Shown here piece by piece: positions 1,889 through 43,283 of a stretch of 64,000 nucleotides of DNA (the stretch's first letter is position 1; every line of letters begins with the position of its first letter). Source of the DNA: Enterobacteria phage P922. The stretch is taken from the sequence record OR999189.1, one strand, 5' to 3'. The position numbers and the translations under genes are program-made. The notes beneath the pieces were generated by a model. The model worked only from the letters and a program-made list of their open reading frames with translations, did no database searches and had not been told where the DNA came from.

Positions 1889-3454
1889 TTAGATACCTTT
1901 AACATATACACGGCGGAAGTAAGCGTTTTTACCAAGGCTATTCAGAATAGAAGGCATACCGCTCTGGATGCGAGAAGCCGGAGCCTGAGCAGCGGATTCT
2001 GCAAATGGGTTGATACCGATACCGTAACGAGTTTTGAATCCCATTACTGGTTGGAAGTTCTTCGGATCGGAACCACGCAGCGGAGTCAGAGCTACATATG
2101 GAGCATAGTAAATACCAGCATCCATTTCGTTCGGACCTTTATAACCTACAGTGAAATAATCCTGTTTAGCATACTGGTCGATATATACACGGTATTTACC
2201 ACCCAGAACACCAGCAAATACTGACTTGGTAGTATCAGTGTTAAAGCCGGTAGCCAGACCCTGTGCAGCATAAGAAATGCCAGTATCAACTGAAGCCAGA
2301 ACGTTAACTACGTTACGGGAAGCGATAATGAAGTTACCTTCACCACGACCGGTCTGACGAGCAATTTCAACTGCTTCTTTGTCAATCTGGAACAACAGAG
2401 CTTTAAAGGATTCACCCGCCCAGCGAGCACCACGAATATCAATCGGATCCTGGAAGTCAAATACACCAGCTTTAGAACCTGGAGTCAGGGTCATACCAGA
2501 TTTACCAACCTGAGCTGAGTAGTTAATCCAATCAACAACTTCACGGTTGATTTCCAGCATGATTTCGGTAGCCAGAATACCAGACAGTTCAGCATCAGCA
2601 TCCATACCGTGAACAGCGCGGAGGTCTTGTGCTAATTCGATAGAGTAAGCAGCTTTCAGCTGACGAGATTTAGCTTCGATAACTTGTTTATCGATACGGA
2701 AGCCCATTTCATTCCATGGGTTATCGGTAGAACCGTTGAAACCTTCCTGAAGTTCAGCGATAGAAGTAGCCATACCTTCAGCGATTTCTACCAGTACACC
2801 AGCTTCCATTTGTTTCTTAATTTCAGCATCTAATTTAGCTACGTCAGATGCAGTGGAATCAATTTGTTTAGCTTCTGTAGCTTGCAGATACACAGTACCA
2901 GTGTCCTGGAAGAAGTGGGTGTAAATAGTTCCAACTTCAAGAGTATCACTTGCTTTCAAAGCAGCGAATTTCTTAGCAGCACCCTGACCAGAGAACATTG
3001 CATCTGGACCATACATTGGGTGGAATGCTTCTTTAGCACCTGAAGCGATTGGGTCTTTACCATATACAGCACGCAGTGCGAATACCTGACCAGTCGGGCT
3101 GTTCATCGGCTGAACACCGCAAATATCGAAAGCAATCAGGTTAGGAATAGCACGACGTACCATACCCATAACAGCTGGGCCAATCTGAGTTACTGCGCCA
3201 GAAGTCTGACCAGCAGCGATGTTAGTAGCATTGTAACCATGGTCACCACCGATTTCAGCTTCTGTTAAGAAAGAACCGAACGCTTGGGCGATTTTTTCGT
3301 CTTTGTACTCTGGAGCTGTCTGGAAATCTTTTTCCTGGTTTTCAAAGATTTTAGCGATAATCGCTTGTTTGCTATTAGCAATTTCCGGTAAACCTTCACC
3401 TTCCAGTAATGGCTTCCATTTGTTCAAAAGTTCAGCTTTAGTTTTGATAGTCAT
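1889..3454 (-). CDS. 23: major capsid protein gp23
   Basis: 521 aa, N-terminus MTIKTKAELLNKWKPLLEGEG matches T4 gp23 from memory; synteny 24-23-22-21. Confidence 0.95.
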   Translation of the reverse strand: MTIKTKAELLNKWKPLLEGEGLPEIANSKQAIIAKIFENQEKDFQTAPEYKDEKIAQAFGSFLTEAEIGGDHGYNATNIAAGQTSGAVTQIGPAVMGMVRRAIPNLIAFDICGVQPMNSPTGQVFALRAVYGKDPIASGAKEAFHPMYGPDAMFSGQGAAKKFAALKASDTLEVGTIYTHFFQDTGTVYLQATEAKQIDSTASDVAKLDAEIKKQMEAGVLVEIAEGMATSIAELQEGFNGSTDNPWNEMGFRIDKQVIEAKSRQLKAAYSIELAQDLRAVHGMDADAELSGILATEIMLEINREVVDWINYSAQVGKSGMTLTPGSKAGVFDFQDPIDIRGARWAGESFKALLFQIDKEAVEIARQTGRGEGNFIIASRNVVNVLASVDTGISYAAQGLATGFNTDTTKSVFAGVLGGKYRVYIDQYAKQDYFTVGYKGPNEMDAGIYYAPYVALTPLRGSDPKNFQPVMGFKTRYGIGINPFAESAAQAPASRIQSGMPSILNSLGKNAYFRRVYVKGI

Positions 3455-3472
3455 TTGTGTTAACCTTTAAAA

Positions 3473-4282
3473 TTAGAAACGAGATGCGACTTTCGCATAT
3501 ACACTTACAATATCTTCTGCACCAGGTGCAGCTTTATCTTCTACAGCTTCAGTGACGAAATTTAGTCCGGCTGCTTCAGTATCAGGAGTATTTATACCCT
3601 CAGTAATAGTGCTTTCATCTTTATTAGACTTCTTCACCATTTCTACGATGGCACTCAATTTATTTGAGAATTCATCTGAATAATCCATACCTTCGACCAG
3701 AGCAGAGACTTTTTCTTTTTGAGACTCAGTCAGATCTTTAGTACTTTCGCTCAATGCCACTTCACGCTGCACATAATTGATATATGCGTCACGCTTATTG
3801 AGTTCTTCGAACAGACGAGCTGATTCTTCTTTATGTTCTTGCAGCTCTTCTTCCATTTCAGCCACAACATCAACTGATTCTTCTGGAACAACAACGTTGT
3901 GTTCAACAAAGAGCTCTTTTAATCCACCAAGCATGGATTCAAACAGTTCGGCTTTGATGCCTTTATCAACTGCTAATTTATTTTCAGCGAGCCATTCTTT
4001 CGCAAGATGGTCAATGAATTTAGAAGCTTGCTCAGCAATTTTCTTCTCAGCTTTTTCTTCTGCTTCTTCTTTATTTTTTTCTACTTCTTCTTCTGCTTTT
4101 TCAGCAATTTTAGCGATATGAGATTCAGCTAATTTAACGGCGTGCTGCTTGACGGTAGCTTCGAATACAGTGCCGAAAGTTTCTTTTGCTTCCGGAGAAA
4201 TATTAACTGATTCGAAAATACTATCAAGAGCAACGGAAGCATCAATTTTTTGCGCTTCAGCAATCAGTTGTTCTTTAAGCAT
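3473..4282 (-). CDS. 22: prohead core scaffold protein gp22
   Basis: 269 aa, highly acidic coiled-coil protein between genes 21 and 23. Confidence 0.85.
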   Translation of the reverse strand: MLKEQLIAEAQKIDASVALDSIFESVNISPEAKETFGTVFEATVKQHAVKLAESHIAKIAEKAEEEVEKNKEEAEEKAEKKIAEQASKFIDHLAKEWLAENKLAVDKGIKAELFESMLGGLKELFVEHNVVVPEESVDVVAEMEEELQEHKEESARLFEELNKRDAYINYVQREVALSESTKDLTESQKEKVSALVEGMDYSDEFSNKLSAIVEMVKKSNKDESTITEGINTPDTEAAGLNFVTEAVEDKAAPGAEDIVSVYAKVASRF

Positions 4283-4309
4283 TTTGTAGTCCTGTTGTTT
4301 AGATAATAA

Positions 4310-4317
4310 TATTTATA
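4310..4317 (-). promoter_or_regulatory. late promoter (TATAAATA) for gene 22
   Basis: Plus-strand TATTTATA 28 nt upstream of the gene 22 start. Confidence 0.6.
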
Positions 4318-4951
4318 ACGCTTTTTTCATGGCCTCTGCGAGAGCCATATAGGCGTCATCGGCACTTGTATCGGCTTCCGCCGTCTGTGATTCGGTAATT
4401 TCCTTAGGAGTTACCCATGCATCTGGAGCACTTGGACCCCATACTGCATCAACACCTACAGTTAATTTGAATCCTTCGTTTACGATACGATAACCTTTAT
4501 TTGTGTCAGTCAATGAACCTAATCCACGAGAAGAAACTCCTGGAATCCATCCGGCACGAATATTAGCTGCTAATTTATCTCCAGGACCGTGGTCACCTTC
4601 AATAACACGAGCTCGTCCGTATACGTCATTTCCTTTCCACCACATATCTTCTATAATGATAGCGGCTTGCATCGGGTCAACATTAGCGCGTGGAGGATGA
4701 TTTAATTCTCCGAGAGCTTGTTTAGTTAAAACTTGCTCATTAATATAGTCTTTTACCGCTTTTTCTAATATGCGTTTTGGATAAAGACGTTTATTTCTAT
4801 TGACGACTTCTGCTTGCATGAATATTCCTTCGATGTATAAACCCGGTTTTAAACCTAAGTCTTTTCCATCGTGGGATTCAAGCATTGGCACACCATCAAT
4901 AATTTCGCCAGGTTGACCCCAAGTTTCAATTAGTAATTGGGGTTCATTCAT
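4313..4951 (-). CDS. 21: prohead protease gp21
   Basis: 212 aa; size and position between 68 and 22 match T4 gp21. Confidence 0.85.
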   Translation of the reverse strand: MNEPQLLIETWGQPGEIIDGVPMLESHDGKDLGLKPGLYIEGIFMQAEVVNRNKRLYPKRILEKAVKDYINEQVLTKQALGELNHPPRANVDPMQAAIIIEDMWWKGNDVYGRARVIEGDHGPGDKLAANIRAGWIPGVSSRGLGSLTDTNKGYRIVNEGFKLTVGVDAVWGPSAPDAWVTPKEITESQTAEADTSADDAYMALAEAMKKAL

Positions 4952-5624: not shown

Positions 5625-7249
<1,625 letters not shown>

Positions 7250-39029: not shown

Positions 39030-39560
39030 ATGTCTCTTTATACCGAACTGAATGAAACTTCCGAAAAATCTTTTGATGGTATTTTATCAATAATGCAAAA
39101 GCAGATATTAGAACAGCTTAGTGAAGCCGCAAGCAACGGACATAAGGCTTGTCGAATCCCAAGCCCACATCGTCGCCTGTATGAACGCCCTCTTATTAAT
39201 TGGCTAGAAAGTGAAGGTCTTACGGTTAAGATTTGTCCTGCCAAATTTGATGTCCCACGCATTCTTAATATTTACTGGGATAAACCGGTTGAGAAACCGA
39301 TTGAGAAAAGTGACCCTTGGGTTGTTAATGTAAAAACATATGATAATGGATGCTCACTTGAGGTGTCTGCTGTAATTAAAGGCACTCACGGTGAAAAATC
39401 GTGGGGTTGGCCTGGTAAAGATAAAGAAATCGTGTTAAGTGTAAAAGCTACTAGTATTAGTACTCCTATAGCTAAAAGCATTATTAATGCTGCTATCGAT
39501 GAAGCTGAACGAATTTGTAAAATTAAAAATAGTTTACATCTCTCAAATAATGGGATATAA
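39030..39560 (+). CDS. hypothetical protein
   Basis: 176-aa ORF with GAGGAAA RBS. Confidence 0.55.
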   Translation: MSLYTELNETSEKSFDGILSIMQKQILEQLSEAASNGHKACRIPSPHRRLYERPLINWLESEGLTVKICPAKFDVPRILNIYWDKPVEKPIEKSDPWVVNVKTYDNGCSLEVSAVIKGTHGEKSWGWPGKDKEIVLSVKATSISTPIAKSIINAAIDEAERICKIKNSLHLSNNGI

Positions 39561-39603
39561 TTCTTCCACAGATTTTAAATCTCAATTAACCTAAGGAAAT
39601 ACT

Positions 39604-40197
39604 ATGAACACACTGAAGAAAATTGTTGAGTTTATTCGCACTAAACTTGGTTCTGCTATGGCTAAAAATCTATCTGTTGAAGAACAGTATACTGCTGCAG
39701 CAGCAAAATTACTTGATAAAATTAAAGACCTAAAAACTGCTTCTGTTAAATCTATTAATGAAGAAAAACGTATTCGTGAACTTGTTATCGAAAAGAATCG
39801 ACAAGCCGAATCAAAAGAGCGTGAAATTCGCAAACTTCTTTCCGAAGGTCAAGATGTAACAATGCATGCTAAGCTCGGTTTACTATATCGTCGAACAGCT
39901 GAGCAGTTGACTACTAAAGCTGATGGTTATGCTGAAATGCGAATTGAAATCGCCAAGAAAGTAGTTGAGTTAGATGATGCTCGCCAAGAACTTGCGGTTA
40001 AATTGGAATATATCCGTGAAACTCGTGCGGCAAATGCCCTTGGAATTAGTACTGCCGATGATGTAGTTGAAATTGCAGCGCTAACTAAGGTTGATATTGA
40101 AGATACTCTTGCTCGAGTTGAAACCTTTAACGGTAATATTTCCGGGGTTGAAACTACCTCTGCCGATGTTCAGGAATACATTAATTCTCTGAAATAA
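39604..40197 (+). CDS. coiled-coil protein, weak PspA/IM30-like resemblance
   Basis: 197 aa, predicted mostly alpha-helical with heptad-like charged repeats; followed by hairpin AAGGGGC-ttcg-GCCCCTT. Confidence 0.55.
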
Positions 40198-40238: not shown

Positions 40239-40853
40239 ATGAAAATGAAAATGCAAAGTGATTTCAATTCAATGTTTGAAGAGTTCCAAAGACAGGTTGA
40301 TGTTCCAGACCAATTACTAAATGCTCTTAAACGTATGGCAGAAGGACGTAATTACTATTGGGGGTCTTCATATGAAACTGATGAAAGTCTTTCTGGAAGA
40401 TTTTCTAGAGGTAAAAAGTCTTTAATACGTCCTGGAATACTCATTAACAGTATTGAATCAATTCATTCATTGACGTGTGATTTTGATGTTGAATTTACTG
40501 ATTTCATTTCTCCTGAATGGACAGTTTGTTATTTAAATGACGATTATGATTATCTTGGCGTTTATAGTTTAAGTGACGCGTGGTTTAGACGTAATTTACA
40601 AAAGTCAAATTTATTTTATATTGATACTACGGTAAAATTTCAGGGAAAGAAATATTTCTTTACTCTTATAGTTGACTCTGAAACAAAATATGAAAATAAG
40701 CGTATTCTTAATAAAAGGAATATCTTGACTATTATTGATGATCTTTTTGATAAATTCGTGGAAAATCCTAATTTTGAAAGCGATTTATTACTAGAAAAAT
40801 TTGTTAAGGAATGTAGAGAATATGTCAAAGCCATCACTATACCTTCCAAGTAA
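40239..40853 (+). CDS. hypothetical protein
   Basis: 204-aa ORF with GGAG RBS. Confidence 0.55.
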   Translation: MKMKMQSDFNSMFEEFQRQVDVPDQLLNALKRMAEGRNYYWGSSYETDESLSGRFSRGKKSLIRPGILINSIESIHSLTCDFDVEFTDFISPEWTVCYLNDDYDYLGVYSLSDAWFRRNLQKSNLFYIDTTVKFQGKKYFFTLIVDSETKYENKRILNKRNILTIIDDLFDKFVENPNFESDLLLEKFVKECREYVKAITIPSK

Positions 40854-41214
40854 ACCTGTGAAGTATGAACTAAAGCGCCAGATAATTTCTACCGATGTAT
40901 TAATGGGTCCTGTGGTAGCTGTATCATTTGTGATTCTGCTAATTGCTGGAATGGTTATAGACGTTATGACTGATATTGAATCCGGTGTAATATTTGGAGC
41001 AACGCTAATTCTTCCATTAATAATTCCGCTTTTATTAGTACCTGTAAATTGGGTAGGATACTGGTATCAAGGAAGACATTATCGTAAACGCGTACGTGAA
41101 TGGAAAGCTCAGTGTAAAAAGATTAAAAAGGAACACCAGCTTAAACTAGATATGTATGAATTTAACGAAATTATGAAATTTGTTAAGGAATCACGATGCA
41201 AAAGCCAAAACTAA
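40822..41214 (+). CDS. small membrane protein, paralog 1 of 3 (C-terminal CRK motif family)
   Basis: First ATG in the track ORF; two hydrophobic helices; C-terminus FVKESRCKSQN. Confidence 0.5.
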   Translation: MSKPSLYLPSKPVKYELKRQIISTDVLMGPVVAVSFVILLIAGMVIDVMTDIESGVIFGATLILPLIIPLLLVPVNWVGYWYQGRHYRKRVREWKAQCKKIKKEHQLKLDMYEFNEIMKFVKESRCKSQN

Positions 41215-41558
41215 ATAAAGTCAAATATTCGTTTCTCGAGGCAATGTTAATTCTTGCTGTATCAGTATTTGCAGCTCTTGCGGGTAGTCTTATTGGATTA
41301 ATGATTGACTGTTTTATTTTAAACGTCGATGGTTCAGCAATTATAACAGAGGTTTGGAGTGAACTTCGTTTTACTATAGCAATTTCATTATTTTCATTCT
41401 TTGGCACTATATTATATTTTCATTATGATAATTTTAAAATAAATTGGCAAAGAAAAAAGGATTACAAAATACAATTAAAAGAATATAATAACTACATGTC
41501 TTATATTGAAAATGAATCAATGAAAGAGTTTGTGAGTGATTGTAGGAAAATTAAATGA
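41196..41558 (+). CDS. small membrane protein, paralog 2 of 3
   Basis: 120 aa; two hydrophobic helices; C-terminus FVSDCRKIK; overlaps neighbours. Confidence 0.55.
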   Translation: MQKPKLNKVKYSFLEAMLILAVSVFAALAGSLIGLMIDCFILNVDGSAIITEVWSELRFTIAISLFSFFGTILYFHYDNFKINWQRKKDYKIQLKEYNNYMSYIENESMKEFVSDCRKIK

Positions 41559-42043
41559 TTTTAAAAACTCGCTGGTATGATTTAGATGATGGGGACGATG
41601 GCATTTCAGTTGATGGAGTTGACTGGAGTGGCTGTTCCGAAGATATGAAAAATTTGCTGATTAGGGAGTTTAGAATGGGATATCAACCAGTTAAGCCATC
41701 TACTGCAACAAATGATAAATTCGTGTGTATTCATAATGGTCGCGCTAAATTAACGAACGCTGATTGGTTCACAGATAAAATTATGATTCTGTGGTACATT
41801 ATTAGTTTTCCTGTGACATCATTTGTATTTTGCTTCTTTGGAGAAAGTCCAGTAGGCAGAACGGGAGATTGGATTATTTTAACCATACTTGTTAATATTT
41901 TTACAGCAGCAATATTATCTGGGATATGGTACACGTTCATTGAAATGCCATGGCGGCTACGCAGACAACAAAAGATTTTTGATGAAAAGAAATATACTCA
42001 AAATTTAAATAACTTTATCACTGAATGCAGGAAATTAAAATGA
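41555..42043 (+). CDS. small membrane protein, paralog 3 of 3
   Basis: 162 aa; two hydrophobic helices; C-terminus FITECRKLK; ATGA overlap with upstream gene. Confidence 0.55.
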   Translation: MILKTRWYDLDDGDDGISVDGVDWSGCSEDMKNLLIREFRMGYQPVKPSTATNDKFVCIHNGRAKLTNADWFTDKIMILWYIISFPVTSFVFCFFGESPVGRTGDWIILTILVNIFTAAILSGIWYTFIEMPWRLRRQQKIFDEKKYTQNLNNFITECRKLK

Positions 42044-42480
42044 AAACATTATCAGCTGGTATTATCTTTATGACAGAAGATAAAGATTTATTTATGGGTC
42101 GGGTTACTGGTTCTCGTAAGCCTGGAATGATGGCACATCGCTGGGATATTCCAAAGGGCCGTGTAGAAAATTCTGATTTAAGCGCATTAGATGCAGCACG
42201 AAGAGAATGTTTAGAAGAGACTGGTTTTAACAATTATAATCCAGATCTTCTAGAAGACCTAGGTGTATTTAAATATTCTAGTAATAAAGACCTACAGTTA
42301 TTTTATTATACGATTCCAGTAGAGCATGAGATGTTTAGAAATTGCTATTGCGAGTCTTATTTTGAAAATAAAGATGGCGTTATGATTCCAGAGATGGATG
42401 CTTTTGCTCTTATTCCTCGTACCCAGTGGCAATATGTGATGGGCCCTTCACTTTACCGAATAATGAACAGCCTCTTTTAA
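42025..42480 (+). CDS. nudE: Nudix hydrolase NudE (e.1)
   Basis: 151 aa; Nudix box RECLEETGF; directly upstream of lysozyme e as in T4. Alternative ATG at 42040. Confidence 0.75.
   Translation: MQEIKMKTLSAGIIFMTEDKDLFMGRVTGSRKPGMMAHRWDIPKGRVENSDLSALDAARRECLEETGFNNYNPDLLEDLGVFKYSSNKDLQLFYYTIPVEHEMFRNCYCESYFENKDGVMIPEMDAFALIPRTQWQYVMGPSLYRIMNSLF

Positions 42481-43283
<803 letters not shown>

Follow-up and report, generated by a model that had tools for sequence, protein, structure and literature searches.

What do the small overlapping genes upstream of the lysozyme gene of a T4-like phage encode, and why should their products end in nearly the same peptide? The question is raised by a 64,000-nucleotide stretch of the genome of Enterobacteria phage P922 (sequence record OR999189.1), the whole of which is called the window below. 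A preliminary description of the window, made from its letters alone, drew attention to three consecutive open reading frames (ORFs) whose predicted products have two hydrophobic helices and a basic, cysteine-containing C-terminal tail, and took them for membrane-protein paralogues, possibly superinfection-exclusion or immunity-like proteins or lysis regulators. Here we report that these ORFs correspond to T4 genes e.4, e.3 and e.2, that their tail motif is also borne by the soluble product of the preceding gene, e.5, and that selection acts on the motif peptide itself, the tails being the most constrained parts of the three membrane proteins.

Four consecutive genes encode proteins with a common C-terminal motif

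The window comes from a Tequatrovirus, i.e. a T4-like phage, and sequence comparison, with full-length matches to the three PHROG profiles (Table 1), identifies its three ORFs as the orthologues of T4 e.4, e.3 and e.2; we consider this identity, as well as the architecture described below, practically certain. A 2.9-kb query around the region matched 682 phage records, with a top DNA identity of 96.7% (Tequatrovirus genomes), and the gene order, e.6-e.5-e.4-e.3-e.2-nudE-e-…-denV, is that of T4. As in T4, where order and overlaps are the same, e.4 lies between e.5 and e.3 and overlaps both, e.3 lies between e.4 and e.2 or nudE, and e.2 lies just upstream of nudE. The overlap is 32 nucleotides (nt) long for e.5/e.4, 19 nt for e.4/e.3 and 4 nt (ATGA) for e.3/e.2, with another ATGA at 42040–42043 for e.2/nudE. 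Altogether, e.5 through nudE run as overlapping, coupled genes (Table 1), and for the three ORFs positions and translational coupling are as given in the preliminary description. The T4-type e.3 and e.4 proteins are about 81–84% identical to those of the window (80.8% for e.3 and T4 e.3/msp6), and Salmonella phage pSe_SNUABM_01 carries an e.4 copy with 100% identity. A precomputed PF26873 domain, the model of which is missing from the Pfam copy used for our local searches, is present on 99 of the 99 listed e.4 homologues, and a precomputed PF26896 domain is found on e.2 homologues. The three genes are known, catalogued genes and not a new system: GenBank L13089, an older T4 record, names them msp5, msp6 and msp7, and the T4 proteins are catalogued as 'conserved hypothetical, predicted membrane protein'. 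In the literature searched, we found no paper discussing either the function of e.2–e.5 or the shared tail.

Kyte-Doolittle analysis reveals two hydrophobic segments in each of the three proteins (TM1 and TM2, for transmembrane, in Table 1), as the preliminary description had noticed. With short acidic loops and flanks rich in lysine and arginine, each protein is predicted by hydropathy and the positive-inside rule to form an N-in/C-in helical hairpin, and e.4, e.3 and e.2 look like small inner-membrane proteins. In e.4, the hairpin is followed by a long basic helix, predicted to be cytoplasmic, and the protein has an internal EWKAQCKK motif in addition to the terminal FVKESRCKSQN. The AlphaFold2 model of e.4 (predicted local distance difference test, pLDDT, 74) comprises helices 24–49, 54–111 and 114–123, so that TM2 extends into the cytoplasmic helix as far as residue 111 and the tail motif lies on the last helix. 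A fold search with this model retrieved only its own family from BFVD and, from the PDB, no match with E below 4; the AlphaFold2 model of e.2 (pLDDT 51) was too poor for such a search. The e.2 protein has an acidic cytoplasmic N-domain (residues 1–75) with the pattern W-x-x-[LI]-D-[DE]...G-[ILM]...[VI]-[DG]-W-x-x-C, which is kept in distant members of the family.

The tails quoted in the preliminary description are exact: FVKESRCKSQN in e.4, FVSDCRKIK in e.3 (which ends ...MKEFVSDCRKIK) and FITECRKLK in e.2 (which ends ...LNNFITECRKLK). The motif proposed there, F-x-x-x-CRK-[IL]-K, fits e.3 and e.2, whereas e.4 has a shifted variant, FVKESRCK. A fourth bearer had been overlooked, namely soluble e.5, which contains the motif near its end (...LLLEKFVKECREYVK...), its C-terminus being given by ...LLLEKFVKECREYVKAITIPSK and its last residues by ...FVKECREYVKAITIPSK. 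A consensus for the four consecutive genes is h-x-x-[FW]-[IV]-x-x-C-R-[K/E], where h is a hydrophobic residue. The tail is amphipathic, with the hydrophobic positions h, F, I/V, C and h at i, i+3, i+4, i+7 and i+10, and its hydrophobic moment ranges from 0.32 to 0.72 (0.43–0.72 except for the Jiaodavirus 108-aa tail), compared to an e.5 background of 0.34 ± 0.18. When the six-frame translation of the window, restricted to open frames of at least 40 amino acids (aa), was scanned for [FW][IV]xxC[RK], three matches were obtained, each at most 12 residues from a stop, and adding 69 kb of T4 to the scan still returned just the same three. Shuffled sequences gave about 1.1–1.3 matches in total, the probability of at least three near a stop being 0.005–0.01. 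The repetition is also visible in the DNA, as the first 16 nt of motif copies 1 and 2 (AAATTTGTTAAGGAAT) are identical.

Constraint is strongest in the tails

Among 15 Tequatrovirus loci, the ratio of nonsynonymous to synonymous substitution rates (dN/dS) of the C-tail is 0.16 for e.4, 0.13 for e.3 and 0.08 for e.2, with a tail dS of 0.18–0.20, the same as in the rest of the genes. The ratio is 0.38–0.80 for the TM segments and 0.26–1.27 for periplasmic loops or TM helices overall, the highest value, that of the e.2 loop, being based on 9 codons. Within e.4, e.3 and e.2, constraint is strongest on the cytoplasmic tails and weakest on the TM helices and loops. Within a single genus, the e.4 hairpin (40903–41049) occurs in several very different variants (e.g. 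GPVVAVSFVILLIAGMVIDVMTDIESG... versus VEIIPVIMFTISTIIGFIILEHNKNASRE...), which disagree at the majority of TM positions, yet the N- and C-tails on either side are nearly the same, a mosaic, cassette-like pattern. As for the N-terminus of e.4, the peptide LY[LM]PS[KE]P (40822–40857), within the e.5 overlap, is kept across four genera, and the e.4 frame of this overlap is better conserved than the e.5 frame.

The preliminary description had left room for a motif that arises only from overlapping reading frames and is not conserved in relatives. The motif is kept in seven genera, the homologues of other genera being otherwise 20–50% identical, and e.5 carries it in every genus. Mosigvirus tails read FIMECREY (e.5), FVKEIRCK (e.4) and FIKECRK (e.3); the Dhakavirus e.2 tail reads FIEECRK; Gaprivervirus has FIAECREY, FIKEVRN, FIKECKS and FIEECRK; Jiaodavirus has FIKYCRE and FVKEVRRK, and two further small membrane proteins that end WIRSCRK and WIKEMK; Kanagawavirus has FVDQCRA, FIKNVRRK and, on e.2, FIKGCRN, as well as FIQMCRG on a soluble 92-aa protein, the 92-aa soluble motif-bearing ORF being found in Kosakonia phage 305. 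In Pseudotevenvirus RB43, ...LEKFIHSCKK is found on an e.5-like protein, about 40 aa from the stop, and no hairpin proteins are encoded nearby. In the distant e.2 homologues retrieved by an exhaustive profile search, FIK[GEM]CR[KN] is retained although the remaining sequence can no longer be aligned easily.

In most cases, the motif codons also read as the Shine-Dalgarno sequence of the following gene (AAGGAA, GAGGAA or AGGAAA), 6–13 nt before the ATG, and the same DNA is thus also used as a ribosome-binding site. Two observations show that selection acts on the motif peptide itself: (i) the arginine is encoded by AGA, AGG, CGA, CGT or CGC, i.e. five of the six possible codons, and the cysteine by both TGT and TGC; (ii) the low dN/dS of the tails goes with a normal dS. 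In Gaprivervirus and Kanagawavirus, moreover, the e.5 motif lies 30–40 nt upstream of the next start, apart from the Shine-Dalgarno sequence, and is still conserved. Folding of eight junctions gave no significant conserved RNA structure (z from -1.2 to +0.7).

A scan of IMG/VR for F-I-x-E-C-R-K-stop/ATG yielded 23 matches, 12 of which are the ends of T4-like e.2 or e.3; the remaining ones are short open frames that do not belong to the family, and their number is about that estimated for chance. The motif-at-junction arrangement was thus seen only in T4-like phages among the viral contigs scanned. The e.2 family is tiny, with 16 clusters (50% identity) in a set of 1.84 billion proteins, and occurs in T4-like phages of enterobacteria only.

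Relationships among e.4, e.3 and e.2

The three membrane proteins had been described as paralogues of one another. Pairwise BLAST comparisons among them are marginal (E = 0.006, 0.005 and 0.11), and within-genus hhalign profiles were too shallow to be informative (effective number of sequences, Neff, 1.2–1.6); the addition of other genera resolved the question. With such genus-diverse profiles, and with 200 shuffles preserving the tail/TM/loop layout as the null, the e.4–e.3 comparison scores 41.0 over 117 columns (null 17.5 ± 3.7), a value reached by none of the 200 shuffles. The e.4–e.2 score, 23.9, is not significant (15 of 200 shuffles), and the e.3–e.2 score, 40.9, is significant over the last 19 residues only (none of 200). 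The similarity of e.5 to e.2 and e.3 is also confined to the tail. By profile comparison, then, e.4 and e.3 are full-length paralogues and e.2 is a different protein sharing only topology and tail with them, so that the paralogy originally proposed for three proteins is retained for one pair. Nor is e.2 a recent tandem copy, since in other genera e.3 and e.2 lie about 3 kb apart, with unrelated genes in between.

The interval between e.3 and e.2 in other Tevenvirinae genera (2857–3651, 5691–6712 and 2957–4562 of three related loci; absent from the window) contains three to five tandem small soluble ORFs (65–105 aa), nearly all of which end W-[VI]-S-S-S-x-x-C-stop or a close variant (for example GAWVSSSALC, GGWVSSSSEC, QGWVSSSYSC and KIWYPSSC...). 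They are followed by conserved proteins of about 319 and 228 aa. These tandem ORFs constitute a second paralogue family defined by a C-terminal cysteine motif, and might be akin to precursor peptides.

Natural variants of the e.2 region

Phages T2 and F26 (vB_Eco_F26) lack e.2. Their e.3/nudE junction reads ...GAGTTTGTGAGTGAT|TGCAGGAAATTAAAATG..., in which the e.3 motif, on the left, is joined to the e.2 motif and the nudE start on the right. The breakpoints are motif copies 3 (left) and 4 (right), which share TG[TC]AGGAAA, and the product is an e.3 protein with the hybrid tail FVSDCRKLK and with its coupling to nudE intact. The repeated motif copies thus supplied the microhomology for a precise in-frame deletion of e.2 by recombination. 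The hybrid tail is also found in the PP01-type e.3 cluster (163 member sequences). Among Tequatrovirus-type records, 498 contain e.4, 498 e.3, 447 e.2 and about 500 e.5, and about 10% have e.4 and e.3 without e.2.

The arrangement bears some likeness to the PeSL (promoter-early stem-loop) cassettes that mediate modular shuffling in T4-type genomes, namely short gene-boundary repeats in a plastic T4-type region with recombinational gain and loss (PMC2839356, PMC4122927). The repeat of the window differs from these cassettes in being coding sequence (peptide motif plus Shine-Dalgarno) with about 9–11 nt of identity, and not a promoter plus a hairpin, and in that one clean event at the motif repeats is documented, the e.2 deletion of T2 and F26.

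Other variants also affect e.2. The window has an intact e.2 of 162 aa, compared to the 102 aa annotated in the T4 reference. In the latter (minus strand, stretch 3992–4461, equivalent to window positions 41555–42043), a -1 shift in an A-run (...TTTATAAAAATCC) and a compensating +1 shift (TTATCTAGGG) lie 78 nt apart; TM2 is out of frame, and from the second shift onwards the conserved tail is in frame again. The 102-aa form is present in other public genomes (22 cluster members). Phages of the vB_EcoM-UFV05/UFV09 type (5 contigs) carry an e.4(1-31)::e.2(87-162) fusion with e.3 removed, which corresponds to window positions 40822–40914 joined to 41813–42043; the joint, located by eye, lies at a CCTGTG microhomology in TM1. 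Because such deletion, frameshift and fusion variants occur naturally, the genes of the e.2 region are dispensable and modular, and the module is accessory. Two further fusions were encountered on short metagenome contigs: one protein joins the e.4 N-terminus to an HTH_11-like sequence (HTH, helix-turn-helix), and the other an HTH-like N-terminus to the last 22 residues of e.2, which points to a variant that has a foreign HTH gene in place of everything between the e.4 hairpin and e.2.

Possible roles of the tails and hairpins

In T4, the RNAs of e.2–e.6 are early, and at the protein level e.4 and e.5 belong to the early class, e.2 and e.6 to the middle class and e.3 to the late class (PMC9697503, supplements 4 and 6). 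CRISPRi-ART knock-downs of e.2–e.6 were scored 'Not Fit', i.e. without fitness effect (PMC11879866, supplement 15). Because the constrained parts of the proteins are cytoplasmic while the hairpins tolerate substitution and chimerism, we favour the idea that the hairpins would mainly be membrane anchors and the tails the working parts; and because one short amphipathic helix is common to four proteins and also occurs on soluble ones, this helix may be a docking element. Early in infection, the tails would present a single shared docking helix on the cytoplasmic side of the inner membrane, through which e.5, e.4, e.3 and e.2 would bind one another, or each would bind one shared cytoplasmic partner, held at the membrane by the membrane forms. 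Candidate partners would be e.6, which is always adjacent and far more widespread than its neighbours, or a host protein. We regard an anchor-plus-docking-tail mechanism as tentative, possible rather than probable; that the tail is a dedicated docking peptide assembling e.5, e.4, e.3 and e.2 with one partner into a membrane-tethered early complex seems doubtful.

Several points weigh against this reading. The motif is almost always adjacent to the following start codon and shares bases with a purine-rich stretch resembling a Shine-Dalgarno sequence, and conservation of its K-E, E-E and R-K codons could partly be nucleotide-driven. The e.4 orthologues of three genera lack the motif cysteine (FIKEVRN, FVKEVRRK, FIKNVRRK). 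The relaxed constraint on the TM segments could reflect fast evolution at a membrane interface instead of a passive anchor, and the docking and assembly step is purely inferred. As for the knock-downs, the essential lysozyme gene e was also scored 'Not Fit' (PMC11879866, supplement 15), and the negative result for e.2–e.6 is weak for this reason.

Three other readings place the activity in the membrane. If the activity resided in the TM hairpins, they would bind to and inhibit, or else hijack, a protein of the host inner membrane, conceivably a transporter, a protease, a sensor or a membrane-acting defence effector, and the tail would be a regulatory or stability element. Small two-helix membrane proteins commonly act on host membrane proteins, and early synthesis, an accessory status and a family restricted to enterobacterial T4-like phages would all fit; yet the TM helices are the least constrained regions, the e.4 hairpins vary while the tails stay identical, an e.4::e.2 chimera with a hybrid TM1 exists in public phage genome records and no link emerged from PADLOC, Pfam or NCBIfam, which makes a hairpin-directed target rather unlikely. 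The exclusion or immunity role suggested in the preliminary description, whereby the hairpins would alter the inner membrane and bar the DNA of a second T-even phage, is modelled on T4 Imm (83 aa), which is likewise small, early and non-essential, resides in the inner membrane and has two hydrophobic helices. It would account for dispensability in single-phage infection, and a phage-phage arms race could explain why the TM and loop regions vary among close relatives, the e.2 loop with its 9 codons included. Imm, however, has neither a long conserved cytoplasmic tail nor F-I-x-x-C-R, and e.4, e.3 and e.2 profiles compared with T4 Imm, Sp, Ac and other small T4 membrane proteins disclosed no homology (2.5–3.1 bits for Imm with hmmsearch). 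No PADLOC defence family was matched at E ≤ 0.1 by e.6, e.5, e.4, e.3 or e.2. Furthermore, the strongly constrained parts are cytoplasmic, soluble proteins have the motif too, e.2 is lost in T2 and broken in the T4 reference, and T4 exclusion is accounted for by imm and sp; exclusion is therefore decidedly unlikely. The lysis-regulator version of the same proposal, in which the proteins would control membrane permeabilisation, rests on the topology of class II holins or pinholins such as S21 68 of phage 21, with two TM segments, a predicted N-in/C-in orientation, a charged C-terminus and an endolysin gene downstream, here lysozyme gene e, two genes away in the same direction. Against this stand the early RNAs, the natural loss of e.2, the far longer tails with a specific motif, the absence of a holin family match in Pfam, PHROGs and Foldseek (BFVD, PDB), the 3 kb of unrelated genes that in other genera separate e.3 from e.2 and from e, and the fact that T4 has its own holin, t, encoded elsewhere in the genome (its antiholin being rI), so that a holin-like role is hardly credible.

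The remaining alternatives concern the tail itself. It could be an in-plane amphipathic membrane-targeting helix, comparable to the short C-terminal helices of MinD and FtsA, that would put the otherwise soluble e.5 on the membrane and lay the other tails flat on the inner leaflet. The high hydrophobic moment of most bearers and the C-terminal position on a soluble protein encoded beside membrane proteins speak for it, as does the resemblance of the Jiaodavirus variants SWIKEMK and AWIRSCRK to the FtsA tail WIKRL. But the segment carries a net charge of only -1 to +2 in most orthologues, with +5 in one and neutral or negative values in several, and the near-invariant F-I and C-R and the dN/dS of the tails exceed what amphipathicity would need; we consider membrane targeting unlikely. 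Finally, the motif could be a functionless by-product of a duplicated junction cassette kept for translation of the next gene. Each copy in the window lies 0–12 nt from the next start codon or over it, the K-E, E-E and R-K codons spell the three Shine-Dalgarno variants, the e.5/e.4 and e.4/e.3 junctions share 16 identical nt plus ATG-NNA-AAG-CC, and the copies do act as recombination sites. Such a by-product would not be expected to use five arginine codons and both cysteine codons at a normal dS and the lowest dN, nor to conserve F, I/V and C, which play no part in a ribosome-binding site; the motif is moreover kept 30–40 nt from the next start in Gaprivervirus and Kanagawavirus e.5, and about 40 aa before the stop in the e.5-like protein of RB43, and the junctions have no significant RNA structure. 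The by-product explanation is largely refuted by the codon data and very improbable.

Searches of the local Pfam copy, NCBIfam, PADLOC and PDB sequences gave nothing meaningful for the cluster proteins. The variants also spoke against a gp21 prohead-protease site (I-x-E) or a ClpX C-motif-2 degron, against mimicry of the FtsZ C-terminal peptide and against an EF-hand in the N-domain of e.2, all of which were set aside.

Neighbouring genes and annotation

Table 1. Positions in the window of the genes, hydrophobic segments, motif copies and regulatory elements of the e.6–e region
Feature	Position	Strand	Remarks
Best sigma-70-like promoter match	39533..39561	+	TTTACA-17-TATAAT, 11/12; upstream of e.6
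e.6	39604..40197	+	197 aa, mostly helical by composition; context gene
GC-rich hairpin, UUCG loop	40200..40221	+	AAGGGGC-UUCG-GCCCCUU; between e.6 and e.5
e.5 orthologue	40239..40853	+	204 aa, without hydrophobic segment; phrog_2607, E 1.1e-109
Motif copy 1 (e.5)	40800..40820	+	F-V-K-E-C-R-E; AAGGAA 13 nt upstream of e.4 ATG 40822
e.4 orthologue	40822..41214	+	130 aa, ATG start; phrog_2604, E 2.4e-70 over residues 1-130
e.4 TM1	40903..40968	+	aa 28-49
e.4 TM2	40984..41049	+	aa 55-76
Motif copy 2 (e.4)	41179..41199	+	F-V-K-E-S-R-C; AAGGAA = Shine-Dalgarno, 6 nt before e.3 ATG 41196
e.3 orthologue	41196..41558	+	120 aa; phrog_2330, E 1.2e-55
e.3 TM1	41244..41321	+	aa 17-42
e.3 TM2	41364..41426	+	aa 57-77
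Motif copy 3 (e.3)	41529..41555	+	F-V-S-D-C-R-K-I-K; AGGAAA = Shine-Dalgarno, 7 nt before e.2 ATG
e.2 orthologue	41555..42043	+	Intact, 162 aa; phrog_2203, E 1.1e-78
e.2 TM1	41780..41842	+	aa 76-96
e.2 TM2	41870..41941	+	aa 106-129
Motif copy 4 (e.2)	42014..42040	+	F-I-T-E-C-R-K-L-K; AGGAAA = Shine-Dalgarno, 7 nt before nudE ATG 42040
nudE	42040..42480	+	Nudix hydrolase; PF00293, E 1.5e-13
Lysozyme gene e	42517..43005	+	3' of nudE

Upstream of the cluster, an early promoter is annotated in the T4 record L13089 at the place equivalent to that of our best sigma-70-like match, and the GC-rich hairpin between e.6 and e.5 is labelled stem-loop or terminator in the T4 and e11/2 records. Gene e.6 is always located immediately upstream of e.5 and was found in 1106 phage records, including phages of Aeromonas, Klebsiella and Cronobacter as well as RB43. 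A relationship of e.6 to PspA/IM30, by which the cluster would have been linked to membrane-stress biology, was considered on the basis of a colinear but weak BLASTP alignment with E. coli PspA (E 0.015); it was dropped, as hhalign gave E 0.21, PspA/Vipp1 did not appear among the PDB matches and there was no Pfam match.

Public records of e.3–e.6 homologues bear product names such as 'sulfurtransferase', 'DNA primase', 'phosphoserine phosphatase', 'host specificity protein', 'head outer capsid protein' and 'portal vertex protein'. These names are unsupported by Pfam, NCBIfam and PHROGs and look like propagated annotation errors. As regards the 'sulfurtransferase' label of some e.3 and e.4 records in particular, no rhodanese or sulfurtransferase match was obtained with Pfam or NCBIfam, even at permissive thresholds.

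Significance

About half of the T4 genes have no assigned function, e.2–e.6 among them. Our analysis leaves the basic picture unchanged: e.2–e.5 are accessory, were already known and catalogued, and belong to phages that have been sampled very well. What the shared tail motif adds is a new, if modest, means of studying them. That four consecutive early proteins, three of them membrane proteins and one soluble, end in one selected peptide is a reason for joint study, and the motif offers both a short pull-down bait (e.g. the tail ...QNLNNFITECRKLK) and a few residues as targets for mutation (F, I/V, C and R). Misleading public labels, such as 'sulfurtransferase', 'DNA primase' and 'host specificity protein', are now left without support. 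About 25 nt of motif DNA also serve three purposes: a selected peptide, the ribosome-binding site of the next gene and the microhomology for in-frame gene loss. If the docking reading were true, T-even phages would possess an unrecognised host-takeover or protection module defined by a linear motif and not by a domain; the motif DNA would double as ribosome-binding site and recombination joint, allowing in-frame gain or loss of modules, and the complex would, in other genera, include additional small proteins bearing the tail.

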